In this document: positions 30,534-57,255 of the stretch, in pieces | Layout of the letters: each line of letters opens with the position of its first letter | Position numbering within the stretch: position 1 is the first letter of the stretch | Origin: Candidatus Heimdallarchaeum aukensis | GTDB taxonomy: Archaea > Asgardarchaeota > Heimdallarchaeia > Heimdallarchaeales > Heimdallarchaeaceae | Reading direction: 5' to 3' | Assembly: GCA_021513695.1 (NCBI GenBank) | Contig: CP084166.1 | Coordinates: forward strand, 128,001 to 192,000 | Length of the DNA: 64,000 bases | Translations under genes and position numbers: made by a program | The notes under the pieces: generated by a model | What the model was told of the DNA's origin: nothing | The model's input: the letters and a program-made list of their open reading frames with translations, nothing else | Database searches by the model: none

Positions 30534-31379
30534 TTATTTACTAAAATAAGCCGATTCTTCATTATTTATTTCTAATAGAATCTTAGCCATTTTTGGGAAT
30601 TCTGTAGGAGCTATTAAGCTAGCATTCTGACACCCAGTATTTACTAATATATAGACAAACAAATCAGAATAGTGCGCAATAACCTCTATATTCCCATTGG
30701 TAAAAGCTATTTTGTTTAAGTTTTCTTTTATTAAGATGGAAAATTTGATTTCGTTTAAAATTTTTAAAAGGTAGGTATGATCTGAATAAAAAATATTTGA
30801 AGTTGTTTTATGAAATAATAACTCATTTGTATATCTATCTAAAATAAAAAGATTATAGGGAGTATTTTCTACATATTTATCTACTCTATTGAAAAAATCT
30901 AGTTTCTTTGCTGAGTCAATGTTTAGATTGTAAATTCTTTCTTCTTCTCTTATTTCATAATCTTTTAGCACATCAAGAATCTGCATGAAGGGTTCTTTAA
31001 AGAGTTTTAAAAAGAAAGTACCATCTCCAAATTCACGATTAATTATCTCTTCATTTTCATAATCACTAAAAGTACTTGAAACTAGAAATCTAAAATTTTC
31101 CACTTCTTTTAAAAACACTCTTTCTCCTTTTTCGAATTCAATTCTTGCTACAAGAAAGAAACGATTATTAAAAAAAGGAATGTAAATCAGTCTTTCATCT
31201 CCCGCAATATCTAGGTAATTAATGGTTTTTCCAGTTAACTCAACTGAGAAGGATTGTAAAGCACTCATTAGAGCACCTATTAAATCAGGGTCGATAGGAA
31301 CAGATTTTCTTATTATCGCGTGATTTATTAGAATACCATCATTTGAAACTAACCACATTTCTTTAATCATTTTTTTCAC
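30534..31379 (-). CDS. tandem roadblock/LC7 (longin-like) domain protein
   Basis: The N-terminal MWLVSNDGILINHAII...IGALMSALQSFSVEL...LIYIPFFNNRFFLVARI fits the roadblock alpha-beta-beta-alpha-beta pattern. A second similar unit lies in the C-terminal half. The gene starts 1 bp after the GTPase gene's stop. Confidence 0.45.
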   Translation of the reverse strand: MKKMIKEMWLVSNDGILINHAIIRKSVPIDPDLIGALMSALQSFSVELTGKTINYLDIAGDERLIYIPFFNNRFFLVARIEFEKGERVFLKEVENFRFLVSSTFSDYENEEIINREFGDGTFFLKLFKEPFMQILDVLKDYEIREEERIYNLNIDSAKKLDFFNRVDKYVENTPYNLFILDRYTNELLFHKTTSNIFYSDHTYLLKILNEIKFSILIKENLNKIAFTNGNIEVIAHYSDLFVYILVNTGCQNASLIAPTEFPKMAKILLEINNEESAYFSK

Positions 31380-32174
31380 TTATAGTTTTTTTATATATTC
31401 GATTATAGAATTAAAATTATTATTAGTTAGAGAAGAGTATACAATCAGATTTTTCTGTAAGAACGAAATTTCTTCCAGCTTTTTGCTTATTCTTTCAAAG
31501 TTTTTAGTTGTATTTTTAATATCACTTTTTGTTAAAATAAATGACATTCTAAGTTTATTCTCATCTTCAATTTTCTTCAGAATTGCAAAAATTCTTTCAT
31601 ACAAAGATTCTTTGTAGATAAAGCCATAGTCAAGAACAAAAAAGATCGCATCAAAGTTATTTTCGACTTTTTCATTTAGATAATATGAAATCAAATCCAT
31701 ATTTCCGCCAATTTCTGTAATTTTTAATTTTTTTCCAAGGAAATAAAATTGAGATGTGGAAATTCCGATATTATGAAGTTTAGTTCCCAAAAAAGCATTG
31801 TAATTTAATCTGTGAATAATACTCGATTTTCCACATTTACTAAAACCAATTAGTAGAATGTTGAGTTGTTTATTTTCCTTTCTTGAGATTGAATATTGTA
31901 CTTTGAATTGATTTTTTTGTCCAAAAGTAATTTTGGTAGAATATTGACCTAGAATTGAGCCTGTTGATTCAATTATTTTTCCAAAACCATCAAAAATGCT
32001 TATACCAAGAATAAATTCTTCAGGAATTTTTTCTAGGAGTTGAAGGAGAAGTGATTTGATAGATATTTGATTTTGTAAATAAAATGACAATTTGTTATGG
32101 AATTCATTATTTTGAACTATTTGTCTTAGCAACTGTGTGGCAATTGTATCTTCTTTCACGTTTATTAAGTTCAT
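31380..32174 (-). CDS. Ras-superfamily small GTPase with an N-terminal roadblock-like extension of about 100 aa
   Basis: G1 LLIGFSKCGKSSI (GxxxxGKS); G3-like ITEIGGN; G4 ILTKSD (N/TKxD). The N-terminal ILGISIFDGFGKIIESTG region resembles a roadblock core. Confidence 0.55.
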   Translation of the reverse strand: MNLINVKEDTIATQLLRQIVQNNEFHNKLSFYLQNQISIKSLLLQLLEKIPEEFILGISIFDGFGKIIESTGSILGQYSTKITFGQKNQFKVQYSISRKENKQLNILLIGFSKCGKSSIIHRLNYNAFLGTKLHNIGISTSQFYFLGKKLKITEIGGNMDLISYYLNEKVENNFDAIFFVLDYGFIYKESLYERIFAILKKIEDENKLRMSFILTKSDIKNTTKNFERISKKLEEISFLQKNLIVYSSLTNNNFNSIIEYIKKL

Positions 32175-32193
32175 TTAACCTTAATTAACTTTT

Positions 32194-33183
32194 TTAATAA
32201 CCCATGTCCAAATTTACTTTATTAAGTGGTTCTTCTCCTCTCACGAACCTATTGATATTTTCAACTAGTTTAATTACACGATCGTGCCATTTTTTATCAG
32301 TTTGCCAAGCGCGATGAGCAGACATAATTATGTTATCTAATTCCTGAAATGGATACTTAGAAGGGTAACAAGGAACAGGTTCTTGTTTCTCTCCTCTCCT
32401 TTTTGGATAATTATACCAGACATCTATTGCTGCGCCTTTGATTTTTTTATTTTTAAGGCTGAGATATAGTTCTTCTTCATCTATTGTTTTTCCTCTTCCT
32501 ACATTTACAATAATAGCTTCTTTTTTCATAGCGTTAAACTCTTCTTTTCCTAAGAAGTTTCTTGTTTCTTCAGTAAGTGGAAGTGAATTAATGATAAAAT
32601 CAGCTTGTTTGATCGCTTCAATTCTCTTTTCTGGAGTATAAACTGTTACATTTTGCATTTCTGCGTTCTTTCTTCTTTTTATCGCGATAAATTTCATGTC
32701 AAACGGTTTACAATACTCCATTACTTTTTTGCCTATATGTCCAAAGCCTAAAAATAATATTGTTTTATTTGTTAAACTTACAGAAGGATATTGGGTGTAA
32801 TCCCATAGTCCTTTTTCTCTTAATAATTTGTCATTTGCTAACAACTCTTTAGAAGCTGCTAAAAGTAAAGAAAAAGCATATTCTGCAATTGTGTCTGAAT
32901 GTTCATGACTATTACAGAGAATAATATTTTTTTCTTTGTAAATTTTTAAGTTGTGTCTATCTACACCAGTTCCAAATGTTTGATGAAACTTCAATTTATT
33001 TGTACTTTCTAGCTCTTCTTTTGATAATCTTCCACCTAAAACAATATCTACTTCTTGTAAGATTTTTTTTCTTTCATCTTCTGTAAGTTCATCTCTAAAA
33101 AATACTTCTACTCTCTCGTCTATTCTTTCTCTAATTTCTTCTTTTTCTTGTTCATTAGCGTTAATTAAAAAGAGTGCTTTCAT
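32194..33183 (-). CDS. D-isomer-specific 2-hydroxyacid dehydrogenase family protein
   Basis: ILFLGFGHIGKKV is the NAD-binding GxGxxG motif. Catalytic-domain blocks match the PGDH/GyaR-like family. Confidence 0.7.
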   Translation of the reverse strand: MKALFLINANEQEKEEIRERIDERVEVFFRDELTEDERKKILQEVDIVLGGRLSKEELESTNKLKFHQTFGTGVDRHNLKIYKEKNIILCNSHEHSDTIAEYAFSLLLAASKELLANDKLLREKGLWDYTQYPSVSLTNKTILFLGFGHIGKKVMEYCKPFDMKFIAIKRRKNAEMQNVTVYTPEKRIEAIKQADFIINSLPLTEETRNFLGKEEFNAMKKEAIIVNVGRGKTIDEEELYLSLKNKKIKGAAIDVWYNYPKRRGEKQEPVPCYPSKYPFQELDNIIMSAHRAWQTDKKWHDRVIKLVENINRFVRGEEPLNKVNLDMGY

Positions 33184-37974: not shown

Positions 37975-39738
37975 GTGACAAATATGGAAAGGAAAATAAA
38001 AGAAGAAGTTGAAGAATTTCTGAATTTAGAACCGAAAGAACAAATAAGTATCGTTCAAAATCAATGCGAAGAAGTAATTTCACAAATAAAAGAAAAAAAT
38101 GTTGACTTGGAACATTTCATATACCAAGTAACAAAATTCAAAACTTTTTTTTCTCTTTTAAGTAAAGTAAGAAGGATTTATAGAAAAGAATACTTTGATC
38201 TTGTAGTTAATACATTAGCTAAACTTTGGTATGCTGTCGAAAAGTGCCAATCTCAAAAGTTGCTTTACCCTACTTTATCCGCTTTTACAGAAGTATTTTC
38301 CAAACTCAAAGGGTTAAATCCGTACTTTACTTTAGAAGCTTGTATAAATAAAACAATCTCATACAGTTTACTCCCCTCAATTGTAGAGTTAGAGATTCTT
38401 CTATCAAAAGAAAAGCAACATCTTCAATTTCTTCTTGACTATTTTCAGTTAGAATCAGTTTTAAAGCTAGTAGAAAAAGAAGAAGAAAAAATAACAATAA
38501 TACAATCAGCAACAAATTACATTCAAACACTAATTTTAACCTTATACAATTTCCTTTTTACTATTCCTAATCTGAAAAAAAAGGACTTTATTTCATGGTA
38601 TAAATTATTTGAAGAAGCGTTAAGCAAAGCTATCTCAACACATAAACTACTACTAAAACAAGAACTTTCAGAGATAAATAAATTTAGGACACTTCTATCT
38701 AAATCCTCACTCCATTCTATAAAAGCACAACTATTACTACTTTGGATAAAGTTTCTAAACGAAAAAAATGAAGAGAAGTTAAATCTAGCCTTAATGGAAA
38801 ACACACAGGCCATGCAAACAATCGAACACCTGCTCGATAATTCAATATATAAAGAAAATGTTAAACCCTATTATTTCCAGTATAAAACATTATTTTTGGA
38901 AACACGATTTTATCAGTTACTACATAATTTTGTAAAAAGCCAGTTTAGAAATGATTTACGTGTAGGAGATATAAAAGATGACAAAAAATCTTTATCTCTT
39001 AAAAATCTTAAATTCCAAGTAGATGAAATATTGAATGAAATATGGGAATACATAAGTGAAATACAAACAAAGGGAGACGACAGTATTATTGGAGTTTCCT
39101 CAAATATGATAAACACTTATGCAAAAGTATCTTATGGAGCTTACATTTACGAAATAAGAGAGAATATAGAGCAGATGGAACAAATAATAAAAACAAGAAG
39201 ATTGGATATTAGCGACCCTGAGCTATCTCTCATGTTAGGAAATTATTGGTTGATGAAATGGGGAGAAAATAACGAAAATAATCGAAAATATCTAGAATTA
39301 GCTGAATCTTATTTCACACGAGCAGCAGAAATTTATCAAATATTATTTAACAACAAAAAACTTCCAATATATGCATTTAGCATTTCAGGACTAATTTCGT
39401 TAAGACAAAATAATCCTCCGAAAGCAGAAGTCTTTTTCATGAAAGCAGATGATGTATTTAATGATGCTAAATATGCAGAAATATTAAATGAATCAGAGAT
39501 ACTATACTATACAAAATTTAGAGAGCAAATTGATAGAATATTGAACAATGAAAAAATAAAAAAACCATTAAGATTTAATAAACCTTTTAACCCACTAGAT
39601 TTCAACACATGGACAATAGAAAAAAAAGACTGGAGAAAAAAGTTTTCTTATATTGCAGAACCATTTCCATTTCATTTAACACAATTAAAAATACATGAGT
39701 TTGAATTTATGAGCCCAAGAAAGGAGAACGAAGAATGA
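37975..39738 (+). CDS. hypothetical all-alpha (TPR-like) protein, probably co-transcribed with aor
   Basis: Starts 6 bp after the aor stop. 587 aa of helical, low-similarity sequence. Confidence 0.35.
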   Translation: MTNMERKIKEEVEEFLNLEPKEQISIVQNQCEEVISQIKEKNVDLEHFIYQVTKFKTFFSLLSKVRRIYRKEYFDLVVNTLAKLWYAVEKCQSQKLLYPTLSAFTEVFSKLKGLNPYFTLEACINKTISYSLLPSIVELEILLSKEKQHLQFLLDYFQLESVLKLVEKEEEKITIIQSATNYIQTLILTLYNFLFTIPNLKKKDFISWYKLFEEALSKAISTHKLLLKQELSEINKFRTLLSKSSLHSIKAQLLLLWIKFLNEKNEEKLNLALMENTQAMQTIEHLLDNSIYKENVKPYYFQYKTLFLETRFYQLLHNFVKSQFRNDLRVGDIKDDKKSLSLKNLKFQVDEILNEIWEYISEIQTKGDDSIIGVSSNMINTYAKVSYGAYIYEIRENIEQMEQIIKTRRLDISDPELSLMLGNYWLMKWGENNENNRKYLELAESYFTRAAEIYQILFNNKKLPIYAFSISGLISLRQNNPPKAEVFFMKADDVFNDAKYAEILNESEILYYTKFREQIDRILNNEKIKKPLRFNKPFNPLDFNTWTIEKKDWRKKFSYIAEPFPFHLTQLKIHEFEFMSPRKENEE

Positions 39739-41208: not shown

Positions 41209-42174
41209 CTATTCTCCCAAATTTTTTCTCCAGTTGTAATCTTCTTTTGCTATCAGTGTAACAGCAGAATCTTCTTTTGAATCGATGATTTTTAATTCTG
41301 TATTTTCTATAATCTTCTTTGAAAATTCTAGTATTTTTGGGTACCTTGGCATTATTTCATAAGGTAACCTTTTTCTTGCGTCTCCAACACTCATAAAACC
41401 TTTTACTTCTAGAAAATGAGCTTCTGATCTTAAAAATAATTCAGCAAAAGCTTCTGGTTCGACTAAATTGTAGTTTTCATCTACTAAAGTTAATCTTATA
41501 ACTTTTCTAGTGTTAAGCGAAGGAAGTAATTCAATTGTTTCCATCACTTTGTTCCATAGATTTGAAAAAGAAGGACGAGCAGTTTTTTTGAAACTTTCTT
41601 CAGTAGGGGCAATTAGAGTAACATAGAGTTGAGTAGGAAGAGGGTCAAGTTTCTTCAACATTTCAGGATTAGTGCCATTAGTTACTAGAAAAGTAGTCAT
41701 ATCACGATTGTGGAACTCTTGAATTAATTCTGGTAACAAAGGATAGAAAGTTGGTTCTCCACTTAAAGAAATTGCAGCATGTTTTGGATTGTAAGCTTCT
41801 TCATATAATCTTGGTTCTACTTTTGGATGATTTTTGAATCCTGCAATTAGTCTTCTTTGATGTTCTATCATTTGATCAATAATATATTCCGGTTTGTCAA
41901 CTTTTCCTCTCATTAATTCTTTGTTGTACCATGATGCACTTCTCCAGCAAAAAACACATTTTAGATTACACCATATTGTTGCAGGAGTACATTGAAGACA
42001 ACGGTGAGAAGCTATTCCGTAAAATTGTTGTTTATAGCAAAAACCTTCTCCTTTTAACGCGTGCTTTAACCAGGTGCAAATTTTTACTGCAGAGTGATTA
42101 CCAGCTATTCTGTACTGTTGTTTTTCTAGTTTGTCTTTCAATTTTGGAGGAATAATGTTTGTATTTAAACTCAT
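41209..42174 (-). CDS. taw1: tRNA 4-demethylwyosine synthase (Taw1/TYW1), radical SAM
   Basis: HSAVKICTWLKHALKGEGFCYKQQFYGIASHRCLQCTPATIWCNLKCVFCWRSASW matches archaeal Taw1, including the CxxxCxxC cluster. Confidence 0.8.
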   Translation of the reverse strand: MSLNTNIIPPKLKDKLEKQQYRIAGNHSAVKICTWLKHALKGEGFCYKQQFYGIASHRCLQCTPATIWCNLKCVFCWRSASWYNKELMRGKVDKPEYIIDQMIEHQRRLIAGFKNHPKVEPRLYEEAYNPKHAAISLSGEPTFYPLLPELIQEFHNRDMTTFLVTNGTNPEMLKKLDPLPTQLYVTLIAPTEESFKKTARPSFSNLWNKVMETIELLPSLNTRKVIRLTLVDENYNLVEPEAFAELFLRSEAHFLEVKGFMSVGDARKRLPYEIMPRYPKILEFSKKIIENTELKIIDSKEDSAVTLIAKEDYNWRKNLGE

Positions 42175-42301
42175 TAGATTTACTTATTTTTCTTTATTTT
42201 TAGACTTTATCTTTATTGAAATTTTTTTTGATTAAATTTACTATAAAATTAACAAAGGAAAACAATAGATTAAAATATTTAAAAAATTAAAATATACTGA
42301 T

Positions 42302-43417
42302 ATGGTTAGTATTAAAAAAGTTCTCAAGCAACTAGAAGATTCTGATCCTATAGTTCGAAGAGATGCAATACTTACTCTTGGAGAACTAAAAGACGAAAAA
42401 GGGGTTGATCCTTTAATTAAGTGTGTTCAACAAGAAATAAAAGAAAATAGAATCACCGCTATTGTTGCACTTTCAGATATTGGAGATCATAGGGCTATTG
42501 AAATATTAATCTACTGTTTAATGGATGATGATGAAGAAATAAGACTTGCTGCTGCTCGAGCTTTAGGACGATTTACTTCTCCTCAAGCTATCACTACTTT
42601 ACTTGTTTCATTAAAAAAAGACCCAAGTGTGAGAGTTAAGAGTCGTGCAGCTCTATCTTTAGGGAGTATTGGTTCAGAACTGCCTGTTGAAGAATTACTT
42701 AAAGAATCTAAATTAGAACACCCAACCACTCTTCTTTATTCTATAAATTCTGCTTTGACAATGATAGCAAAGAAAAATGGTTATAGTTCAGTAGATGAAC
42801 TTGTTCAAAAAATAAGGGCTAAAAAGGCAGAAGTAGATGAGAAAACACCAGAGCATAAACAAATTCAGGAGAAAGAAGAGCTCGAATCTTTTCCTCGTTT
42901 ATATGACTACATTAGAAAATATGTAGCTCGAGAACTAGAAGGGGTACAAACAGTATTAAGTATTAACTCAGATGAAAAGACTGCATCAAAGAAAATAGCT
43001 GATATTTTAGCAGAAAAATTCTGGAAATTTGCTGAATGGATCGGAAAAAGAATGGGACATAAATTAACTGAATATCAATCTGATTTGCTCTGGCAGATGA
43101 TATGGGATACATCAAGGCCAATTAGAAATGAAATTTACCAAATGATAAGAGATCATCGCTCAGAATTAGAGGAATTAAATCGATTCCAGAAATGGCTCAA
43201 CAAAATAGAAGAACAAAAAGAAGAAGAAATCGTTAAAGATATTGAAAGAAGCAGACCTAAACCCATTATTCAAACTTCAAATAATGTGAAAAAAGACGAA
43301 GCAGAGACAATTAGAGCTGCAGATTTGGCAAGAAGTATTTCTTCAAATCTTGAAGAAATAATGGGCAAATATTCTAGTTGGAAAACAAGAGAGTTAAAAG
43401 ATGAAGAAGATTATTAA
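42302..43417 (+). CDS. HEAT (PBS-lyase-type) repeat protein
   Basis: Repeats: DPIVRRDAILTLGELKDEKGVDPLIKCVQQ / NRITAIVALSDIGDHRAIEILIYCL / DEEIRLAAARALGRF / VRVKSRAALSLGSIGS. Confidence 0.55.
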   Translation: MVSIKKVLKQLEDSDPIVRRDAILTLGELKDEKGVDPLIKCVQQEIKENRITAIVALSDIGDHRAIEILIYCLMDDDEEIRLAAARALGRFTSPQAITTLLVSLKKDPSVRVKSRAALSLGSIGSELPVEELLKESKLEHPTTLLYSINSALTMIAKKNGYSSVDELVQKIRAKKAEVDEKTPEHKQIQEKEELESFPRLYDYIRKYVARELEGVQTVLSINSDEKTASKKIADILAEKFWKFAEWIGKRMGHKLTEYQSDLLWQMIWDTSRPIRNEIYQMIRDHRSELEELNRFQKWLNKIEEQKEEEIVKDIERSRPKPIIQTSNNVKKDEAETIRAADLARSISSNLEEIMGKYSSWKTRELKDEEDY

Positions 43418-43569
43418 GCTTCTTTAAAATTCTGAAAATTGCCAAAAAAATTTTTCTAAAACAATTTTTTATTATTTATTAATTTTCGTAATACCTTGCT
43501 AATACTAAATCCTTCACGACAAAAACATATTTATTTCTGTTTACAATTGTGATATAGTAGATATCTAAG

Positions 43570-43779
43570 ATGGAATATGGGGTTAATATGAAAAAAAAGC
43601 TGATTACATTTAAAGTAACAGAAGCTATGATGAAATGGATAGCAGAAATGATGGAAAAGGGGAATTATAAAAATAGAACAGAATTAATTGTAGATGCTCT
43701 TAGAGAGTTTCTCATCCAAGAAAGAATGGTTGAAGATCAGGAAGAACTAGAAGCAATTTTTGAAAGAATTGATGAATAG
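43570..43779 (+). CDS. ribbon-helix-helix (CopG-like) DNA-binding protein
   Basis: 69 aa. KLITFKVTEAMMKWI is a beta-strand followed by two helices (NRTELIVDALREFL), the typical RHH layout. Confidence 0.45.
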   Translation: MEYGVNMKKKLITFKVTEAMMKWIAEMMEKGNYKNRTELIVDALREFLIQERMVEDQEELEAIFERIDE

Positions 43780-43821
43780 TTCTCTTATAACTCCTTCTGT
43801 ATTTCTGTTATTTTAGCCCTA

Positions 43822-44629
43822 TTATTCAAACCAATACATAGATGTTTTTTCGAAACATTCTTTTGTTAAATTTTGTGAAAGCTTAAAATAATTAGTAACT
43901 TTTTTATCTATCCTTTTTCTGAAAATCACTGCTTGATTAAAATCTCTATCTGATTTTATCCAGTTTTTTGTAATTTCTTTCATTGTTACCCAGATATCAG
44001 AGGAAGGAAAAGGGATTGGTATCTCTCTAAAAAGGTTTGAAGTTATGTCTCTTACAATAAAACTTTCTACTATAAATTGAACAAATGAGGAGGAAAGATA
44101 ACCAAACAACCCATAAAGGTCTATTTGTTCATCAGGAATTATGATGTCAAAAATGTCGTTTACGTAATAGCCTTCTAGGTCCAAACCAATAAAATACTTC
44201 TTTCCTCTATTTCTACGGACTATTTTTGGTTTTTCAAATATTTGATGATCTCCTGGTGCTCCTAATACTTTTCTGTCATAAATTATTTTTTCTTTTCCTG
44301 GAAAAACTTCAAAGTTTATGACACCTTCTTTGTAATTATTTGAAAAGATATTGTGTCTTACTATTTCTACAGATTTAATTTCATTTGAATATTTCTTTTT
44401 TTTAATATACTTCTCTTTGTATCTCTTTGTTATCGTTAATCCTCGTCTAATAAAAGAATGTTCTTTTAATTTAGGGTAATTATTCAGGATAGTGCTGATT
44501 TCCTTTTGACTTTCAGAACTAAAATTTGAAAAAAGAAAAAGAGGAGGGAAAATGAAGCTATAGTCTATTTTGTGTTCATGATTATCTTTTCTTTTATGAA
44601 ATTTAATGTAATTACTTTCGTTTTTTAAA
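43822..44629 (-). pseudogene. 3' fragment (about 269 codons) of the N6-adenine DNA methyltransferase gene, truncated at the tandem-duplication junction
   Basis: Nucleotide-identical to 47170..47977. The copy is cut at 44629/44630, where it abuts internal Taw1 sequence. Confidence 0.6.
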
Positions 44630-45524
44630 AATCGATGATTTTTAATTCTGTATTTTCTATAATCTTCTTTGAAAATTCTAGTATTTTTGGGTACCTTGGC
44701 ATTATTTCATAAGGTAACCTTTTTCTTGCGTCTCCAACACTCATAAAACCTTTTACTTCTAGAAAATGAGCTTCTGATCTTAAAAATAATTCAGCAAAAG
44801 CTTCTGGTTCGACTAAATTGTAGTTTTCATCTACTAAAGTTAATCTTATAACTTTTCTAGTGTTAAGCGAAGGAAGTAATTCAATTGTTTCCATCACTTT
44901 GTTCCATAGATTTGAAAAAGAAGGACGAGCAGTTTTTTTGAAACTTTCTTCAGTAGGGGCAATTAGAGTAACATAGAGTTGAGTAGGAAGAGGGTCAAGT
45001 TTCTTCAACATTTCAGGATTAGTGCCATTAGTTACTAGAAAAGTAGTCATATCACGATTGTGGAACTCTTGAATTAATTCTGGTAACAAAGGATAGAAAG
45101 TTGGTTCTCCACTTAAAGAAATTGCAGCATGTTTTGGATTGTAAGCTTCTTCATATAATCTTGGTTCTACTTTTGGATGATTTTTGAATCCTGCAATTAG
45201 TCTTCTTTGATGTTCTATCATTTGATCAATAATATATTCCGGTTTGTCAACTTTTCCTCTCATTAATTCTTTGTTGTACCATGATGCACTTCTCCAGCAA
45301 AAAACACATTTTAGATTACACCATATTGTTGCAGGAGTACATTGAAGACAACGGTGAGAAGCTATTCCGTAAAATTGTTGTTTATAGCAAAAACCTTCTC
45401 CTTTTAACGCGTGCTTTAACCAGGTGCAAATTTTTACTGCAGAGTGATTACCAGCTATTCTGTACTGTTGTTTTTCTAGTTTGTCTTTCAATTTTGGAGG
45501 AATAATGTTTGTATTTAAACTCAT
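44625..45524 (-). CDS. taw1: Taw1/TYW1 second copy; the last ~22 codons are replaced by junction sequence
   Basis: Identical to 41280..42174 up to the duplication junction. The C-terminus reads ...KIIDF* instead of ...KIIDSKEDSAVTLIAKEDYNWRKNLGE*. Confidence 0.6.
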   Translation of the reverse strand: MSLNTNIIPPKLKDKLEKQQYRIAGNHSAVKICTWLKHALKGEGFCYKQQFYGIASHRCLQCTPATIWCNLKCVFCWRSASWYNKELMRGKVDKPEYIIDQMIEHQRRLIAGFKNHPKVEPRLYEEAYNPKHAAISLSGEPTFYPLLPELIQEFHNRDMTTFLVTNGTNPEMLKKLDPLPTQLYVTLIAPTEESFKKTARPSFSNLWNKVMETIELLPSLNTRKVIRLTLVDENYNLVEPEAFAELFLRSEAHFLEVKGFMSVGDARKRLPYEIMPRYPKILEFSKKIIENTELKIIDF

Positions 45525-45649
45525 TAGATTTACTTATTTTCTTTATTTTTAGACTTTATCTTTATTGAAATTTTTTTGATTAAATTTACTATAAAATTAA
45601 CAAAGGAAAACAATAGATTAAAATATTTAAAAAATTAAAATATACTGAT

Positions 45650-46765
45650 ATGGTTAGTATTAAAAAAGTTCTCAAGCAACTAGAAGATTCTGATCCTATA
45701 GTTCGAAGAGATGCAATACTTACTCTTGGAGAACTAAAAGACGAAAAAGGGGTTGATCCTTTAATTAAGTGTGTTCAACAAGAAATAAAAGAAAATAGAA
45801 TCACCGCTATTGTTGCACTTTCAGATATTGGAGATCATAGGGCTATTGAAATATTAATCTACTGTTTAATGGATGATGATGAAGAAATAAGACTTGCTGC
45901 TGCTCGAGCTTTAGGACGATTTACTTCTCCTCAAGCTATCACTACTTTACTTGTTTCATTAAAAAAAGACCCAAGTGTGAGAGTTAAGAGTCGTGCAGCT
46001 CTATCTTTAGGGAGTATTGGTTCAGAACTGCCTGTTGAAGAATTACTTAAAGAATCTAAATTAGAACACCCAACCACTCTTCTTTATTCTATAAATTCTG
46101 CTTTGACAATGATAGCAAAGAAAAATGGTTATAGTTCAGTAGATGAACTTGTTCAAAAAATAAGGGCTAAAAAGGCAGAAGTAGATGAGAAAACACCAGA
46201 GCATAAACAAATTCAGGAGAAAGAAGAGCTCGAATCTTTTCCTCGTTTATATGACTACATTAGAAAATATGTAGCTCGAGAACTAGAAGGGGTACAAACA
46301 GTATTAAGTATTAACTCAGATGAAAAGACTGCATCAAAGAAAATAGCTGATATTTTAGCAGAAAAATTCTGGAAATTTGCTGAATGGATCGGAAAAAGAA
46401 TGGGACATAAATTAACTGAATATCAATCTGATTTGCTCTGGCAGATGATATGGGATACATCAAGGCCAATTAGAAATGAAATTTACCAAATGATAAGAGA
46501 TCATCGCTCAGAATTAGAGGAATTAAATCGATTCCAGAAATGGCTCAACAAAATAGAAGAACAAAAAGAAGAAGAAATCGTTAAAGATATTGAAAGAAGC
46601 AGACCTAAACCCATTATTCAAACTTCAAATAATGTGAAAAAAGACGAAGCAGAGACAATTAGAGCTGCAGATTTGGCAAGAAGTATTTCTTCAAATCTTG
46701 AAGAAATAATGGGCAAATATTCTAGTTGGAAAACAAGAGAGTTAAAAGATGAAGAAGATTATTAA
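45650..46765 (+). CDS. HEAT repeat protein (duplicate of 42302..43417)
   Basis: Identical protein sequence. Confidence 0.55.
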   Translation: MVSIKKVLKQLEDSDPIVRRDAILTLGELKDEKGVDPLIKCVQQEIKENRITAIVALSDIGDHRAIEILIYCLMDDDEEIRLAAARALGRFTSPQAITTLLVSLKKDPSVRVKSRAALSLGSIGSELPVEELLKESKLEHPTTLLYSINSALTMIAKKNGYSSVDELVQKIRAKKAEVDEKTPEHKQIQEKEELESFPRLYDYIRKYVARELEGVQTVLSINSDEKTASKKIADILAEKFWKFAEWIGKRMGHKLTEYQSDLLWQMIWDTSRPIRNEIYQMIRDHRSELEELNRFQKWLNKIEEQKEEEIVKDIERSRPKPIIQTSNNVKKDEAETIRAADLARSISSNLEEIMGKYSSWKTRELKDEEDY

Positions 46766-46917
46766 GCTTCTTTAAAATTCTGAAAATTGCCAAAAAAATT
46801 TTTCTAAAACAATTTTTTATTATTTATTAATTTTCGTAATACCTTGCTAATACTAAATCCTTCACGACAAAAACATATTTATTTCTGTTTACAATTGTGA
46901 TATAGTAGATATCTAAG

Positions 46918-47127
46918 ATGGAATATGGGGTTAATATGAAAAAAAAGCTGATTACATTTAAAGTAACAGAAGCTATGATGAAATGGATAGCAGAAATGAT
47001 GGAAAAGGGGAATTATAAAAATAGAACAGAATTAATTGTAGATGCTCTTAGAGAGTTTCTCATCCAAGAAAGAATGGTTGAAGATCAGGAAGAACTAGAA
47101 GCAATTTTTGAAAGAATTGATGAATAG
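46918..47127 (+). CDS. ribbon-helix-helix protein (duplicate of 43570..43779)
   Basis: Identical protein sequence. Confidence 0.45.
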   Translation: MEYGVNMKKKLITFKVTEAMMKWIAEMMEKGNYKNRTELIVDALREFLIQERMVEDQEELEAIFERIDE

Positions 47128-47169
47128 TTCTCTTATAACTCCTTCTGTATTTCTGTTATTTTAGCCCTA

Positions 47170-49161
47170 TTATTCAAACCAATACATAGATGTTTTTTCG
47201 AAACATTCTTTTGTTAAATTTTGTGAAAGCTTAAAATAATTAGTAACTTTTTTATCTATCCTTTTTCTGAAAATCACTGCTTGATTAAAATCTCTATCTG
47301 ATTTTATCCAGTTTTTTGTAATTTCTTTCATTGTTACCCAGATATCAGAGGAAGGAAAAGGGATTGGTATCTCTCTAAAAAGGTTTGAAGTTATGTCTCT
47401 TACAATAAAACTTTCTACTATAAATTGAACAAATGAGGAGGAAAGATAACCAAACAACCCATAAAGGTCTATTTGTTCATCAGGAATTATGATGTCAAAA
47501 ATGTCGTTTACGTAATAGCCTTCTAGGTCCAAACCAATAAAATACTTCTTTCCTCTATTTCTACGGACTATTTTTGGTTTTTCAAATATTTGATGATCTC
47601 CTGGTGCTCCTAATACTTTTCTGTCATAAATTATTTTTTCTTTTCCTGGAAAAACTTCAAAGTTTATGACACCTTCTTTGTAATTATTTGAAAAGATATT
47701 GTGTCTTACTATTTCTACAGATTTAATTTCATTTGAATATTTCTTTTTTTTAATATACTTCTCTTTGTATCTCTTTGTTATCGTTAATCCTCGTCTAATA
47801 AAAGAATGTTCTTTTAATTTAGGGTAATTATTCAGGATAGTGCTGATTTCCTTTTGACTTTCAGAACTAAAATTTGAAAAAAGAAAAAGAGGAGGGAAAA
47901 TGAAGCTATAGTCTATTTTGTGTTCATGATTATCTTTTCTTTTATGAAATTTAATGTAATTACTTTCGTTTTTTAAATCCATTGATAACAAAAAGAATTC
48001 ATTGGAAACGTCTTTAAAGGAATAATCTAAATCTGTGTAAATTTCTACATCATATCTATTATCTTTGAGGTGTTTTCTCCATTTCTTGCCATAAGTATCA
48101 GTTATGATACCTGAAGGTAATATTAATCCTACTTTCTCTTTGGATAAACTTTCTGCAATGATCAAAAAAGGTAGAGCAAAATTATATTTTCCAAAGATTC
48201 TATTTTTATAAGGTTCTCTCTTTAAGAATTCTTTATATCTATTATTTATTTTTTTATATTCTATCCACGGTGGATTTCCAATAACAAAATCAAAAAATTT
48301 TTTCTGAAGACTTAAACTTTCATCAAAAAATATTTCAGGCAAATCAACAAAAAAGCTAAATTTGGATAGAGAAGGATATTTCTTCGATATTTCATCTCTT
48401 TTTGTTAAACATTCTTTTATATCTTGAAAAGAAATTTCTTTTTTACCAAATATCACTTCTCTTCTTTTTTCACGAAGTATCGCTAAAAGTTTCAAAAAAG
48501 TTGTATTTTTTCTTTCTGACATTTGCTTTATTATTCTTTCATCATAACCAAGAATGCTATCTCCGTATTTTGAGATTAAAGGAAGTAATTTTCTTTTTCT
48601 ATTATCTTGTAACATGAAAAAGAGTTTGAAAACTTGAAATTCATAAATAAATGGATCAACTTCAACTGAATATGGCATAATCTCTTGTTTTTCAAAAGCT
48701 GGGTAGAGAAAATCTCCTATTCCTGAAGAAATATCGATAACTGTTTTAGTTTTTTTAGAATTGTTACTCAAAATATCTAATAAATCATATACCTTTTTAA
48801 CAAGAATCCTATTAGTAAAATATTGACCTGTTAATCTCGTTTTATCTTGAATAAGTGATAAAATATTAACTTCATTTATTGTCTTGATTATATTTTTGAT
48901 TTGTTCAAAAACCCAAACTGGTAACTTTTTTTCTAGAACTCTGAGTTTTTCTAACGATAGAAGTATTTGCTTATCATCTTGATTTAGATTAACCAGATTT
49001 ATTAACGAAGTTTTTTGTTGATTTTGTTCAGATGAAAAGGATGAAGAATTGTAAATAAAGTAAAACTTTACTATCATCGATTTTAATTCATTAACTGAAA
49101 CTTTGTACCTACTAGCCTTTTTCTGAATTCTACTATGTAGATTTTCCTCTTTTATTTCCAT
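47170..49161 (-). CDS. N6-adenine (amino) DNA methyltransferase, gamma-class Eco57I/TaqI-like
   Basis: Motif X-like GQYFTNRILVKKV; motif I VIDISSGIGDFL; motif IV FVIGNPPWIEY; motif downstream of IV, GLILPSGIITDTYGKKWRKHL. The C-terminal ~330 aa are a probable target-recognition region. Confidence 0.7.
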   Translation of the reverse strand: MEIKEENLHSRIQKKASRYKVSVNELKSMIVKFYFIYNSSSFSSEQNQQKTSLINLVNLNQDDKQILLSLEKLRVLEKKLPVWVFEQIKNIIKTINEVNILSLIQDKTRLTGQYFTNRILVKKVYDLLDILSNNSKKTKTVIDISSGIGDFLYPAFEKQEIMPYSVEVDPFIYEFQVFKLFFMLQDNRKRKLLPLISKYGDSILGYDERIIKQMSERKNTTFLKLLAILREKRREVIFGKKEISFQDIKECLTKRDEISKKYPSLSKFSFFVDLPEIFFDESLSLQKKFFDFVIGNPPWIEYKKINNRYKEFLKREPYKNRIFGKYNFALPFLIIAESLSKEKVGLILPSGIITDTYGKKWRKHLKDNRYDVEIYTDLDYSFKDVSNEFFLLSMDLKNESNYIKFHKRKDNHEHKIDYSFIFPPLFLFSNFSSESQKEISTILNNYPKLKEHSFIRRGLTITKRYKEKYIKKKKYSNEIKSVEIVRHNIFSNNYKEGVINFEVFPGKEKIIYDRKVLGAPGDHQIFEKPKIVRRNRGKKYFIGLDLEGYYVNDIFDIIIPDEQIDLYGLFGYLSSSFVQFIVESFIVRDITSNLFREIPIPFPSSDIWVTMKEITKNWIKSDRDFNQAVIFRKRIDKKVTNYFKLSQNLTKECFEKTSMYWFE

Positions 49162-49243: not shown

Positions 49244-51307
49244 ATGTCTCATATATTGAAGCAAAATGTAAAGATACCCAAAGAAATACTCCCATTCTAT
49301 AAATTATTTAATGATTATGAGAAAGAACAATTTCAAAAATTGTCATCTTTAAACCAAATGTCTAATTTAAATGAAATAGGTACATTATTGTTAGATATCT
49401 TTAATAAAGAAATTGAACACACTTCATATTTTATGCTTGCTCTTGGCAGAATATTATATCATACTTCAGATATGTTAAATCTTGAAAATATCTATAAAGA
49501 AACCGATTCTGCTGAAATAGGGTTATGGTACGCTTTCTTGAGAATTATTAGTTCAGACGATGTACGAAAGGAAGAAATTCTATTAGATCAACTGAAAGAA
49601 AAACTAAATTATTCCTTATTGCACCTTCTTTGGACTATTGTTGAGCTTAATTTTTATGTATATTCAGGAAATCAATTTAATTTTAGAGAAACTAAAGATA
49701 TTATAATTAATCGTTTTTTAGTTGAAGATATCGAAAATAGAGAAAAACATAAAGTGATTTTCAAGCTTTTTTATTCATATATTTTAATTATAGAAATAAA
49801 TTTGAATTTTCTACAGAATCACATTTCATATGCTAAAGACCTACTTATCCATGCTTCTGATATTATAGTTACTTTAGAAGATAGGATTTTAGAGTCGATG
49901 CAACTTAGATTATCTGCATTAATTGAGTTAAGAAAAAACAACTTTTCAACAGCTCAACATCTATTTTTACGTTCTCTTGCTCTCGCAGATATGTTAAAAG
50001 AAATAAGATTTGCAATACAAGTTAATTCAGAAATTGGAGACCTATATCTACAGATGGGCCATGTTAAAGATGCAAAATTGTTTTACGATAAATCACTAGA
50101 GCTTTTAAAAAAGCATGTACCTTATGATTCTTCATTGCAAGGCATTCTACTTTCTAAGATTGCTGATTACTATTTTGTGAATGAAAAGTTTCAAAAGTCT
50201 CTAGATTTGCTTGATGAAGCTCTTTCATTCTTTAAAGTAGATAATAATTTTTCATTTCAGATCAAACTCAAATACATTGAATATCTTTTAAATTTGAAAA
50301 AAGTTAATAAAGCAGAATCTTTGTTGGTTTCAAGTTTTCAAAAGAAAGACAATTATCTTTATTTGCAGAATCAGAGTTTTTGCCTGTATTTAAGAGGATT
50401 TATTGAATTTCTTAAGAAGAATTTTGGTAAAGCCCAGTCTTTCCTCTATGAGGCAATAGGGATTGCAGATAGAACAGGAGATGAATGGACCAGTTCAAAA
50501 TCTTTAGTTCTTCTTTTAATTTTGCTTCTTCTAAAGTATAACTTAGCTTCAAAAGTAGACGATATAGTAGAAGCAGACAAGTGTGTAGATGATATAATTA
50601 CATTTTTAGAAGAAAAAGCGAAGTTTAAAGAACTTGCTCAGATATATCTAATTCGAGCTAAGATAAGAAAAATACTTCTCGACTTTGAGACTTCACTTTT
50701 TTTACTGAAAACAGGAGAAAATATAGCTAGACAGTATTATCCTGAACTTATTACTAAATATGAAGAAAATATTGATGAGATTTCTAGACTCTTAAATTTT
50801 GAAAACATTGCAGAGACAGAAACACCCTCCATAGATTTCAAGGAAGATATTGACACAATTTTTCAAATTCTTATCAGACAGACTAAAAAACTTGGTTCTC
50901 CAATAGAAAGTATTACAATAGCCGTACTTATTTTTCATTCAAGCGGTATACCAGTTCGGACTTATCGTTCTGAAGAGCTCTATATTAGTGATGATATGAT
51001 CTTTGGTGGTTTTGTGTCAGCAATAAGACATCTGCTTGATGAATTGTTCTATTCCCAAGAATCAAAGTCTTTAAGTGTTGATCATGGACAGTACAAGCTT
51101 CTAATTGAGTTTTACAAGAATTTATTTTCTATTGTTATTCTTACTGTTCGAGATAGCTTCTTGTTACGCAGAAAGATGCATCAATTAGTTAGTTTTGTAG
51201 CTTCAAAGGATCTGTTCAAAGAGAAATATTTTGGTAAAATTGATGAACTTGCTTTGAGAGACATTGATTCATTTGTTGAGAAGTTGTTTAAAGTCAAAAA
51301 GAATTAG
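49244..51307 (+). CDS. TPR-repeat protein with a C-terminal roadblock/LC7-like domain
   Basis: Central TPR-like helices. The C-terminus ITIAVLIFHSSGIPVRTYRSEELYISDDMIFGGFVSAIRHLLDEL...YKLLIEFYKNLFSIVILT fits the roadblock pattern. Confidence 0.5.
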   Translation: MSHILKQNVKIPKEILPFYKLFNDYEKEQFQKLSSLNQMSNLNEIGTLLLDIFNKEIEHTSYFMLALGRILYHTSDMLNLENIYKETDSAEIGLWYAFLRIISSDDVRKEEILLDQLKEKLNYSLLHLLWTIVELNFYVYSGNQFNFRETKDIIINRFLVEDIENREKHKVIFKLFYSYILIIEINLNFLQNHISYAKDLLIHASDIIVTLEDRILESMQLRLSALIELRKNNFSTAQHLFLRSLALADMLKEIRFAIQVNSEIGDLYLQMGHVKDAKLFYDKSLELLKKHVPYDSSLQGILLSKIADYYFVNEKFQKSLDLLDEALSFFKVDNNFSFQIKLKYIEYLLNLKKVNKAESLLVSSFQKKDNYLYLQNQSFCLYLRGFIEFLKKNFGKAQSFLYEAIGIADRTGDEWTSSKSLVLLLILLLLKYNLASKVDDIVEADKCVDDIITFLEEKAKFKELAQIYLIRAKIRKILLDFETSLFLLKTGENIARQYYPELITKYEENIDEISRLLNFENIAETETPSIDFKEDIDTIFQILIRQTKKLGSPIESITIAVLIFHSSGIPVRTYRSEELYISDDMIFGGFVSAIRHLLDELFYSQESKSLSVDHGQYKLLIEFYKNLFSIVILTVRDSFLLRRKMHQLVSFVASKDLFKEKYFGKIDELALRDIDSFVEKLFKVKKN

Positions 51308-51389
51308 TTATTTATGCTCATAAAAAGTTTTTTCTTTTAGACGTAACAAGATAATATTTTTAAGAATAGTAAATATAATGTAAATAAGA

Positions 51390-53474
51390 ATGTCAGTAGT
51401 ATACAGTTTCCCTAGGGAATATAGTCATTATATCCCTCTTTTCACTAGAGAAGAACAAGATTTGATTAACAACTTTTCATCAAAAGTTAATAAAGATACT
51501 TCAATGGGAATCTTGAAAGATATCCTTTTAGATATTTTAGATAATCTTTCTTCCCCTTCTCTCTATTTCTTATACTCACTAGGTAAAGTTTTATTCATTT
51601 CTAGTAATTATAATCTACTTGAAGAACTCAATAAGAAATATAAAAGTGAGAGTTTAGAGCTGTGGTGGGGAAATGCTCTAATAAGGCGAACTGAGAATGA
51701 TAAAGTAATTAATCTCGCTTTGAAAATACTCAACAAGAATCCTGAAGAAAAAATAATTAGATTACATTGTTATGCCCTTTTAGCTAATGCATATGCAAAT
51801 ATGGAAAGTGAAAATCAATATAGACATTATATGCAAGAACTCTATCATGAGTCAATTATCTTTCATAGAGATTTAGATAAAGAAAAAATTGTAATAAATG
51901 ATATCCTTCTTTTTGCACATGCTATTGACATTTGGAAAGAGAGAATATCTGCACCTCTTTTAAAACTTGAAAACAAAATTGATGTAGCTTTTCAAATTGC
52001 AAAAGAACTAGGAGATCGTTATCACCTTGGAAGGTTGTACAACATAAGAGGAGTAATTTACAGATATGTAGGAAGAATCTCTGATTCATTTGAATTTATA
52101 AATAAGGCTATAAATTATTATAAAGCAGTTGGAGCTAGGAGAGGAGTAGCAGCAGCAAAAGCAAATCTTGCAACAATTTATACAATTAAAAATGAACTAG
52201 ATAAAGCCGAGAAATTACTAAAAGAGTCTCTCTCAATTTTTTTGGAAGTAGGTGATTACAAAAATCAATCCTTAATTCACTCTTCTTTAGGTGAAATTGC
52301 TATTGCTAAAGGAGATTATCACTCTGCTTTAGAATTGTATGAAGAATCTGTAAGTATATTGGAGCAAATAAACGCACACGAACTACAAGTTTATTGCTCT
52401 TTAGGCGAATTATATTATTTCTTAGGAAATAAAGAAAAAATGAAAATAATAATGAAATTCCTGCAAGAGACAGACAAAAAGAAAGAAGGATTCGTCTATG
52501 GATATTATAATTTGTTTAAAGCTCTTTTAGAAATTGATAACATGAATTATGGTAAAGCAAATGAATACTTGGAAAAAGCTTTGTCTATAAGTGATACAAG
52601 AGGAACAGGATTTTTCTCTGCAAAAATACTTCTTCAACTGTCATTGATCAACATAAAGCAATATGATTCTTTTCAAGAAAAGGAGTATTTAGAAAAAGCA
52701 AAACAGTACATAAATGATTTAGAACCATTTTATGAAGAGTTGAATAAAACAATTGAACATGTAATAATTCTATTGGTTCTTTCAAAAATATATGCAGTAA
52801 TGGAAGAATATACGAAGTCTTTTAACATTTTACAAAAAGCAAAAGATCGTCTTAATTTGTCAAAGAAAGAAAGAAAAAAGGATAAATATTACCACTTAAT
52901 AGAAAATAGAATTAAAGAACTTGAAGAAATCTTTTCAAAAGCCAAAACCGAAACATCATTCCAAAATGAAACTTTTCAATATGAAATTAAAGAAATGGAA
53001 AGTATAAGCATTAGACAAATATCAGAATATGAAAAAGAATTAAGAACTTCAATATTGGCACTTTTAATAGTACATCCTTCAGGAATACCTTTAATGAATT
53101 ATACGCTCAAGAGGTCTAGTCAATTTAGAGATGAACTAATGTTTGGAGGTTTTATTGTAGCTGTAAAAGACATGATAGAAGAGTTATTCTCTAATCCAAT
53201 GCAGAGTAAAGTAATGGTCATTAGCTATGGTAATAATAAGATAATAATGGAGCACAGTCCAAAGAGAAATTTTAGTGTAATTATTTTATCATCAAAGGAT
53301 AGTTTTATTCTACGAAGAAAAATTCATCGATTAACTCAAAATCTACAAGATATAGAGCTCCCGCAACAGTATATTGGAGAATTGACCCCTAAAACAGCTT
53401 CAAGAATAAATGAAGAAGTAAAAAATGTTTTTGGAGAAAACTTAATGCTATATGAAGGTGCTGTTCATATTTAG
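51390..53474 (+). CDS. TPR-repeat protein with a C-terminal roadblock/LC7-like domain (paralog of 49244..51307)
   Basis: Clear TPR units (NLATIYTIKNELDKAEKLLKESLSIFLEVGDYKNQSLIHSSLGEIAIAKGDYHSALELYEES). The C-terminus TSILALLIVHPSGIPLMNY...LMFGGFIVAVKDMIEEL...NKIIMEHSPKRNFSVIIL is roadblock-like. Confidence 0.5.
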   Translation: MSVVYSFPREYSHYIPLFTREEQDLINNFSSKVNKDTSMGILKDILLDILDNLSSPSLYFLYSLGKVLFISSNYNLLEELNKKYKSESLELWWGNALIRRTENDKVINLALKILNKNPEEKIIRLHCYALLANAYANMESENQYRHYMQELYHESIIFHRDLDKEKIVINDILLFAHAIDIWKERISAPLLKLENKIDVAFQIAKELGDRYHLGRLYNIRGVIYRYVGRISDSFEFINKAINYYKAVGARRGVAAAKANLATIYTIKNELDKAEKLLKESLSIFLEVGDYKNQSLIHSSLGEIAIAKGDYHSALELYEESVSILEQINAHELQVYCSLGELYYFLGNKEKMKIIMKFLQETDKKKEGFVYGYYNLFKALLEIDNMNYGKANEYLEKALSISDTRGTGFFSAKILLQLSLINIKQYDSFQEKEYLEKAKQYINDLEPFYEELNKTIEHVIILLVLSKIYAVMEEYTKSFNILQKAKDRLNLSKKERKKDKYYHLIENRIKELEEIFSKAKTETSFQNETFQYEIKEMESISIRQISEYEKELRTSILALLIVHPSGIPLMNYTLKRSSQFRDELMFGGFIVAVKDMIEELFSNPMQSKVMVISYGNNKIIMEHSPKRNFSVIILSSKDSFILRRKIHRLTQNLQDIELPQQYIGELTPKTASRINEEVKNVFGENLMLYEGAVHI

Positions 53475-55625: not shown

Positions 55626-55809
55626 ATGACTTATTTTTTTACGTAAGTTTGTAAAAATTGAGGGAGAATTGAATGTAAAAAAAGAAAAAGGAAAGGAGGA
55701 AGGGAGTGGAAAGGAAAATGATGGCTTTTTATAGGGAAAAAAAGTATAAGTAAGTAAGAAGAGAAGAAGAAAACCAAAGAAAGAGAAAATAGAAGGAGAA
55801 AAGAAAGAG

Positions 55810-57255
55810 ATGGAGGCCGTCGTCAAAACCTTGAAAGTGAGAATAAAGAATGAGGTATTGACGACAAGGAAGAAGGAAAGGTTAAGGAGAATAACAGGAA
55901 GAGATACGAGAATAATAGAAAAGTATGTGAGAATAATACACCAAAATAGAAAAAAAATATGTATAAGAACTAAAAAAGGGAAAATAAGAGTACATAGAGG
56001 AAAATTAGACGATTTAACATTAACTACTTCAAGAGTAAAAGAAGAAGAGAGGAGAAAGACTTTTCCTCACGACCTTAAGAAAATGTTCCCCTATTGTTCT
56101 CACAATGAGTTTCAAGAGTGTAGAGATATAGCTGTACAACTATATAAACAATGGTATAGACCTAACACCACTCGTCCTCCAATAAAGAGAGCGAGAAGAC
56201 AACTAATTAATGGAAAGAGGTTCATCCTCATCCATCTACCAAAAGAAAAGAATAACACTCTCACTCGTTGGTGGGTAGGAATAAGAGACTCGTTAGACAC
56301 TTGGAAAAGAAATACCCCCTATCATCAGAAGTTGTGGTTACCTTTAGAGATGAGCGATTTCCACCAGAAAGAGTTAAAAAAAGGACAGATAAAAGGTCTA
56401 GAACTGCGATACAAACGTTCTACAAGTGAGTGGTGGGTATATTTTCAACTAAAAGTTCTTCCTCCTTCTTCTTTTCTAAGCGATAATTCCTCTTCTTCTC
56501 TTCCTCCAGCTGTGCTGGGAATAGATCTGGGGATAAACATTCCTGCTGCAGGAGTGTTACTAACCCCTAAAAAGAAGTTAACTATTAAACAGATAAAATT
56601 CTAGTATACCAAACAGTGGAATATAATCAATCATAGATATAAACTCAAACTTTCCCGTCTTCAGAGGAAAGCGGCTTTAAACGACCAGTCGGGTAAAAAA
56701 CACCAAGTTTATCGTTTTCTTGGTCTTCTTCGTCGGAGATATAGAAACGTTAAACTGGCGTATATCCACCAATTTGTAAACGATGTTGTGCGGACAATAG
56801 AGACTTATGCACAAGTGTATGACCTTTTCGTCGTCGTAGGTTATCCTAAACATATCCGTGAAGAGAAAGGAAAAGGGAAAGTTTCTCGTCAATTTCGCAG
56901 AAAACTTCATCAGTGGAACTATGCTCTTGTTCTTGGTCTTCTCCGTCGGGCATTAATATTAAGAGGTTTCGAATCTCACCGTATTCTCACTTTAGACGAA
57001 AGAGGAACATCCTCTCACTGTTCTCGTTGTGGAACGAAAGTCTCTCGCCCTGTCAGAGGGTTAATCTCTTGTTCTTCTTGTAATTACACTTTCCACTCTG
57101 ACCTCACAGGAGCAATGAATATCGCTCGAAGGTTCCTTGGTCATCTTTTCCGTCCTCGTGCAACAACTATTACTGACCACCTTACTGGCTATAAATTCAG
57201 TCTCACCCATTTCACTGTTTGCCAAGGGCTCAGCCATTGGTTGCAGTCCCAGTAG
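55810..57255 (+). pseudogene. tnpB: tnpB (RuvC-like RNA-guided nuclease of the IS605 family) interrupted by a single in-frame TAG at 56602-56604
   Basis: ORF 55810..56604 and ORF 56788..57255 are in the same frame, with an open frame from 56605. Total length 1446 nt = 482 codons. RuvC-I is LGIDLGINIPAAG; the zinc finger is CSRCG...CSSCN; RuvC-III is FHSDLTGAMNIARR. The N-terminus is basic. Confidence 0.75.

Follow-up and report, generated by a model that had tools for sequence, protein, structure and literature searches.

A probable, very recent tandem segmental duplication with a blunt junction in the chromosome of Candidatus Heimdallarchaeum aukensis

Results

A 3.3-kb unit is repeated head to tail

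In a 64,000-nt stretch of the Candidatus Heimdallarchaeum aukensis chromosome (contig CP084166.1, positions 128,001 to 192,000; hereafter the window, meaning the whole stretch that was analyzed), two essentially identical copies of a 3.3-kb unit lie directly next to each other. The unit begins inside a Taw1/TYW1 gene, ends inside a DNA methyltransferase (MTase) gene, and carries between them a gene for a HEAT-repeat protein and another for a ribbon-helix-helix (RHH) protein. We consider this arrangement to be a genuine, very recent tandem segmental duplication that is specific to the population of Ca. H. aukensis PM71, a reading to which we assign a probability of about 0.78. A preliminary description of the same DNA had proposed either a very recent duplication or an assembly artifact. 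The former is now favored by breaks at the unit boundaries in Logan read graphs, by the absence from the window of the primers used to finish the chromosome, and by the single-copy state of the region in eight related loci.

Using a repeat finder and a global alignment, we placed unit 1 at 41280-44629 (3350 nt) and unit 2 at 44630-47977 (3348 nt), in head-to-tail orientation. The two copies share 99.94% identity over ~3.3 kb with 0 substitutions, hence a chance origin of the repeat is impossible. They differ only by two 1-nt deletions in unit 2, which turn a T5 run into T4 (42187/45537) and a T8 run into T7 (42222/45571). The boundaries and the two homopolymer differences given in the preliminary description proved exact to the base, and the junction that it reported, joining the middle of the MTase gene to the 3' part of Taw1, was read back without change. 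No further copy of the unit was found within the 64-kb window.

The novel junction lies between positions 44629 and 44630 (region 44600-44660), where ...CGTTTTTTAAA is followed directly by AATCGATGATT..., without inserted filler bases, and where MTase codon 395 is fused to Taw1 codon 299. Since the bases that flank the units are unlike each other (G at 41279 versus A at 44629, and A at 44630 versus T at 47978), the repeat is exactly two periods long and its junction shows 0 nt of microhomology. The motif AATC, present at both boundaries, was considered as a possible microhomology and rejected on our own reasoning that a crossover there would have removed two A's that the observed junction retains.

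Read graphs break at the unit boundaries

Ca. H. aukensis PM71 comes from an ethane/sulfate sediment enrichment, and its 3.08-Mbp genome was assembled from Illumina PE150 reads with metaSPAdes, scaffolded with Nanopore reads using LRScaf, and polished with pilon at 346x (Wu et al. 2022, PMC8813620). The Nanopore libraries were made from DNA amplified by multiple displacement amplification (MDA), and the DNA of the Illumina library is not listed as MDA-amplified (methods and Table S6, PMC8813620). Given this combination of metaSPAdes, LRScaf, and MDA-derived Nanopore reads, the question of whether the repeat is real or artifactual is a fair one. Both unit copies are annotated as ordinary genes in the published chromosome (3,081,793 bp), and the text of Wu et al. 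2022 (PMC8813620), which we searched, does not mention the duplication.

A view of the raw data that does not depend on the published assembler was obtained from Logan, a collection of k=31 de Bruijn graph assemblies built by Minia3 with a SPAdes-like simplification, in which singleton k-mers are dropped, no 31-mer is found twice within an accession, and only contigs longer than 150 bp are output (PMC12424806). In the graph of SRR15988954, built from reads of project PRJNA721962, the locus was recovered as three contigs that match the window with 100% identity. The flank-A contig (L037, 21.5 kb) ends at 41309, which is the unit start +29; the unit contig (L001, 3350 nt) corresponds to 41280-44629, that is, to unit copy 1 along its entire length and base for base; and the flank-B contig (L038, 7.7 kb) starts at 47948, which is the unit end -29. 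A single-copy locus would have given one contig, as it does in the relatives described below, and the pattern of breaks therefore indicates a repeat. Such breaks are expected when two different 31-mers precede the first 31-mer of the unit and two follow its last, and they mark the unit as a genuine repeat within the read data. Likewise, SRR15988958 yielded a contig beginning exactly at 41280. We infer that SRR15988954 is an accurate Illumina run because its 21.5-kb contig is perfect.

Two other causes of the contig breaks were examined and rejected. Bubbles created by single-nucleotide polymorphisms (SNPs) between strains do not coincide with them, as the nearest SNPs relative to a closely related JGI strain are located at 41233 and 41398 and none lies near 44629 or 47977. 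A deletion variant would have lengthened the unit contig by 30 nt at each end and shortened the flanking contigs, which is the opposite of what was observed. In SRR15988958, the unit was assembled to 3.25 kb while 0 of 5 flanking single-copy proteins were recovered intact, which hints at a higher depth of the unit or, equally well, at uneven coverage.

The region is single copy in related genomes

We compared the locus with eight related loci, one from H. endolithica PR6 and seven from other assemblies (JGI 3300033149, JGI 3300033148, GCA_054387635.1, JGI 3300005265, ENA ERZ23491052, ENA ERZ2433807, and ENA ERZ23491060). As far as their contigs extend, all eight are single copy and share the order GtrA, 131-aa open reading frame (ORF), Taw1 (321 aa), HEAT (371 aa), RHH, MTase (663 aa), and TPR. 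Every relative contig that reaches a unit boundary crosses it unbroken; in JGI 3300033148, where the locus is spread over two contigs (L004 and L041), the assembly break falls inside the HEAT gene and not at the unit borders. Given the single copy in these eight loci, the duplication is, as judged from sequence comparison, derived and specific to the Ca. H. aukensis lineage. Nucleotide identity to H. endolithica PR6 at the locus was 85-88%, in agreement with the published average nucleotide identity of 88% between the two genomes (PMC8813620).

Relative to the 98-99% identical JGI strain (contig L003 of JGI 3300033149, a locus also covered by L040), divergence was found to be mosaic. Within 43365-49000, 0 differences were observed across RHH, MTase, and the start of TPR, while 28 SNPs were located in the second half of the HEAT gene (42500-43400) and 82 SNPs in 31000-32500. 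This mosaic suggests recent recombination between strains or uneven constraint.

A single illegitimate join would account for the arrangement

The structure could be produced by one illegitimate join, without homology or filler, in which the base that follows MTase codon 395 became attached to the one within Taw1 codon 299. Such a join would convert an ancestral A-U-B arrangement (flank A, unit, flank B) to A-U-U-B, and it probably originated from template switching during replication or from end joining. The event would be young enough for no substitutions to have accumulated. Instability is expected of this duplication by analogy with other perfect tandem duplications, and its copy number may be polymorphic.

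The unit contains no recombinase (transposase or integrase), terminal repeats, target-site duplication, tRNA, or Rfam family. A mobile element was ruled out on these grounds and from the position of both unit ends inside coding sequences. The duplication is an ordinary one and not a new kind of element.

Gene content of the unit and of its immediate surroundings

The unit starts within codon 299 of Taw1 and ends within codon 395 of the MTase gene, with the HEAT and RHH genes in between. The intact Taw1/TYW1 gene, encoding a tRNA 4-demethylwyosine synthase of 321 aa, is located at 41209-42174 on the minus strand, and its final 71 nt lie outside the unit. Its product scored 378.8 bits against TIGR03972 (equivalog cut-off, 317.95), matched the Pfam families Radical_SAM and Wyosine_form, and displays the radical-SAM motif CxxxCxxC as CNLKCVFC at residue 69 together with the auxiliary-cluster cysteines Cys33, Cys46, and Cys59.

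The second copy, Taw1' (44625-45524, minus strand; UJG40983.1, deposited as TYW1), consists of 298 native residues followed by F and a stop codon, and thus ends 22 residues early. It keeps the radical-SAM motif, the auxiliary-cluster cysteines, and the promoter region. On TIGR03972 it still scored 369.2 bits, above the family cut-off, with a match that reaches 285 of the 297 profile positions. By comparison with the full copy, in which the Pfam Wyosine_form match is complete, that of Taw1' halts at profile position 49 of 63. Furthermore, the C-terminal strand motif [DE]S[RA]V.L[LIM], found in the full Taw1 and in 22/22 homologues compared, is absent from Taw1'.

The HEAT and RHH genes are doubled with their entire upstream regions. 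The two HEAT genes (42302-43417 and 45650-46765, both on the plus strand; UJG40981.1 and UJG40984.1) encode identical 371-aa proteins with N-terminal HEAT/PBS-lyase repeats, whose residues ~170-371 gave no family match in profile searches. The only hosts in which we saw the full-length family were Heimdall-group archaea. The RHH genes (43570-43779, and 46918-47127 according to the ORF list, both on the plus strand) encode a small DNA-binding protein of the CopG type, which in copy 1 matched Pfam RHH_1 at 23.4 bits (cut-off, 20.5). Counted from the first ATG the RHH ORF is 69 aa long, while the annotations of NCBI and of several metagenome-assembled genomes use an internal start that gives 63 aa; the position of the start codon is uncertain.

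The intact MTase gene (47170-49161, minus strand; UJG40986.1) codes for a 663-aa N6-adenine DNA methyltransferase with an Eco57I-type catalytic domain (PF07669, 53.8 bits) and a TaqI_C specificity domain (PF12950, 35.2 bits). The S-adenosylmethionine-binding motif I (DISSGIGDF) is found at residue 143 and the catalytic motif IV (NPPW) at residue 296. Both catalytic motifs are missing from the 3' fragment of the gene (43822-44629, minus strand; TaqI_C domain only) because this fragment starts at codon 396 and covers codons 396-663. Located immediately downstream of the Taw1' stop codon and in a different frame, it has no promoter of its own and, ahead of a TTG at 44184, no ATG, GTG, or TTG. If the fragment is transcribed at all, this would happen only as a 3' extension of the Taw1' message. 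The gene inventory listed in the preliminary description, namely a full Taw1 and one with an altered C-terminus, two HEAT genes, two RHH genes, a 5'-truncated MTase gene, and an intact one, is borne out in every item.

No partner nuclease gene was found beside the MTase gene in the window or in the seven relatives with contigs that reach it. Its neighbors are RHH, HEAT, and TPR genes, with no nuclease family among them and no nuclease domain fused to the 663-aa protein, so that a restriction-modification system was not recognized. A PADLOC scan for a defense-system context returned only generic MTase, HEAT, and TPR matches. Because all relatives with contigs long enough to include it have it at the same position, the MTase gene looks like a conserved, core-like chromosomal gene rather than a mobile restriction-modification module.

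Beyond the MTase gene, two TPR proteins encoded next to each other at 49244-53474 (687 and 694 aa), which are paralogous and mostly without Pfam match, are kept in H. endolithica PR6 and in the other relative contigs that are long enough. A 28-nt indel relative to contig L041 of JGI 3300033148 is located at 50554-50581, inside the gene for the 687-aa protein, which is intact here and split into 438 aa and 103 aa in L041. On the other side of the unit, a 587-aa protein (37975-39738), again mostly without Pfam match, is conserved beside the locus in H. endolithica PR6.

The two copies differ in the Taw1/HEAT intergenic region

The T runs that distinguish the copies, T5 (42187-42191) and T8 (42222-42229) in copy 1 versus T4 (45537-45540) and T7 (45571-45577) in copy 2, are both located in the 127-nt intergenic region between Taw1 and HEAT, with the T5 run 13-17 nt ahead of the start codon of Taw1 and the T8 run farther upstream. 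Since T5 and T8 are found both in copy 1 and in the JGI strain that is 98-99% identical, the states of copy 2 are either derived or erroneous. They represent either slippage after the duplication or residual consensus errors. In favor of errors, both differences are deletions in T runs, both Logan runs show T5 and T8, and copy 2 is the sole departure of the window from the Logan contigs. Polishing can also fail in one copy of a perfect repeat, as reads prefer the copy that matches them. In favor of real differences, an Illumina-based assembly at 346x should call T5 and T8 correctly, and no kind of mutation is faster than slippage in non-coding runs. The clustering of the two differences has a p value of ~0.016 if they fall at random among 46 runs of at least 5 nt, and of ~0.21 if only intergenic runs are considered.

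If both the duplication and the T-run differences are real, the copies are already diverging in the divergent promoter that the two genes share, and we would be witnessing the birth of paralogues within a months-long Asgard enrichment, a scenario that we consider rather doubtful. In that case, selection may have favored the amplification because it raises the dose of the HEAT/RHH pair, which is specific to the Heimdall group. If true, the blunt, homology-free junction would tell us something about illegitimate joins in an archaeon closely related to eukaryotes.

Discussion

Alternative explanations of the repeat

Several observations weigh against a genuine, recent tandem duplication. The 31-mers of the junction were not seen directly, since the 60-nt junction unitig (containing TTTTTTAAAAATCGATG) is shorter than the Logan reporting length. 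The Logan graph was built from reads of the same project as the genome (PRJNA721962), so that it bypasses the assembler while sharing the DNA sample; its topology gives neither copy number nor clonality, and it is the published assembly that underlies both a copy number of exactly two and fixation in the population. That SRR15988954 is an Illumina run follows only from its perfect 21.5-kb contig, and metaSPAdes combined with LRScaf and MDA-derived Nanopore reads is a route that can misplace repeats. A search for the 43-nt junction in JGI metagenome contigs gave no match; as a 30-mer from the unit start, used as a positive control and present in L003 and L004, went unmatched too, this result carries no weight.

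An assembly or scaffolding artifact, in which the true arrangement is A-U-B and the second copy stems from LRScaf chaining on chimeric MDA/Nanopore reads or from unmerged overlapping contig ends, is in our view unlikely. The assembly route speaks for it, as do the near identity of the copies and a blunt join without microhomology, which is what plain concatenation gives. The sole differences between the copies are homopolymer lengths, which are typical consensus errors, and they make copy 2 the only part of the window that departs from the Logan contigs. However, an artifact of this kind would not explain why an assembler-independent k=31 graph branches at both unit boundaries, with flank contigs that reach 30 nt into the unit, where a single-copy locus yields one unbroken contig, as in the JGI, ENA, and NCBI relatives. 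Known strain SNPs would break contigs elsewhere, and a second run shares the left boundary. An untrimmed circularization overlap or a Sanger patch was rejected, since the end-joining and gap-closing primers of the authors are absent from the 64-kb window (the end-joining primers even with 3 mismatches allowed); the circularization join and the Sanger-closed gap thus lie outside it. Even less credible, and in fact highly improbable, is a second copy dispersed elsewhere in the chromosome and misplaced in tandem. The Logan pattern alone fits tandem and dispersed copies alike, but the published closed circular chromosome offers the tandem as the sole second context of the unit, a dispersed copy would need two extra junctions that are missing from the assembly, and no other copy occurs in the 64-kb window.

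It is possible that the junction is real but that the culture is mixed, containing single-copy cells along with cells carrying at least two copies, or an excised circle, in which case the deposited two-copy sequence would be no more than the shortest route that the graph allows. Homologous recombination is known from bacterial genetics to remove or expand perfect tandem duplications at high rates, and by analogy the same may hold here. The graph shows two left and two right contexts of the unit and not a copy count, and the recovery of the unit to 3.25 kb in SRR15988958 together with 0 of 5 intact flanking proteins would fit a higher depth of the unit as well as uneven coverage. A free circle is unlikely, as its ends would fall inside genes and the unit holds no replication or recombination gene. 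Nothing counts against a mixed culture otherwise, and it refines rather than replaces the interpretation of a genuine, very recent tandem duplication.

Studies of eukaryogenesis draw on very few closed genomes of the Heimdall group, among them that of Ca. H. aukensis. Under the interpretation of a very recent tandem duplication, the second TYW1 (UJG40983.1), HEAT, and RHH entries would be products of one very recent event and not old paralogues. Gene-family counts, paralogue analyses, and single-copy marker checks should therefore treat them as newborn duplicates, with the TYW1 copy truncated and an MTase fragment beside it. If confirmed by read depth, the locus would be a clean, though unsurprising, newborn tandem duplication in an Asgard archaeon.

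Other features of the window

Elsewhere in the window, a 979-aa ORF (9819-12758) with only a weak zinc-ribbon match contains, close to its C-terminus, approximately eight tandem 33-nt units (12479-12742) that encode 11-aa repeats (...EDTYTEPKSPS...). Wu et al. 2022 (PMC8813620) mention intragenic tandem repeats, to which this array may belong. A 117-nt unit occurs twice in tandem (97% identity) at 19558-19791, inside the ORF 19292-20254.

Two inverted paralogous modules of two genes each are located ~14 kb apart at 3260-9333 (plus strand) and 23032-29195 (minus strand). Each module encodes a giant protein (1439 or 1474 aa) followed by a double ABC ATPase (585 or 580 aa), with a weak MacB-like periplasmic domain in one of the giants. 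The ATPase genes of the two modules share 70-82% DNA identity.

At 55810-57255, a TnpB/Cas12f-like gene appears to be split into two ORFs (264 aa and 155 aa), of which only the second matches Cas12f1-like_TNB; on the JGI contig L041, the gene is a single ORF of 481 aa that extends beyond the retrieved region. A short distance upstream of this gene, at 55655, the flank-B contig of Logan comes to its end, and the GC content rises to 0.37 at 56-58 kb. The split gene may belong to a decayed or repeated insertion sequence (IS) element. Finally, a 264-aa protein encoded at 31380-32174 (minus strand) gave weak matches to Arf/SRPRB small GTPases and may be a eukaryote-like GTPase of the kind typical for Asgard archaea.

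Comparison with known systems

Spontaneous tandem duplications and amplifications have been studied in Salmonella and Escherichia coli. The repeat described here resembles them in its identical, kilobase-scale, head-to-tail copies, its ends in unrelated genes, and its one novel join. As in those cases, a truncated gene and a gene fragment were made, the inner genes were doubled, and close relatives lack the duplication. Many bacterial duplications form between rrn operons, IS elements, or REP sequences, or at short microhomologies. In contrast, no homology exists at the join described here, the host is an Asgard archaeon in an enrichment, and no selective condition is known.

The repeat also shares several traits with false duplications created during assembly, namely near-perfect identity, a blunt join, differences confined to homopolymers, and a genome scaffolded with noisy reads. 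It differs from them in that the short-read graph shows the unit as a true repeat node with base-exact boundaries, and in that the circularization site lies elsewhere.

At the level of the genes involved, the full Taw1 aligns end to end with archaeal Taw1/TYW1 enzymes of solved structure (radical-SAM imG-14 synthase; PDB 2YX0, 2Z2U, and 6DJT) and carries both cysteine sets, whereas the duplicated copy stops at residue 298 (+F) without the C-terminal strand motif. The intact MTase resembles solitary gamma-class N6-adenine MTases (Eco57I-type with TaqI_C) in possessing both Pfam domains and motifs I and IV, and it matches the PADLOC type II MTase models. Unlike these enzymes, it occupies a position that is conserved among relatives, and its duplicated piece is the half that carries the specificity domain, without a start codon.

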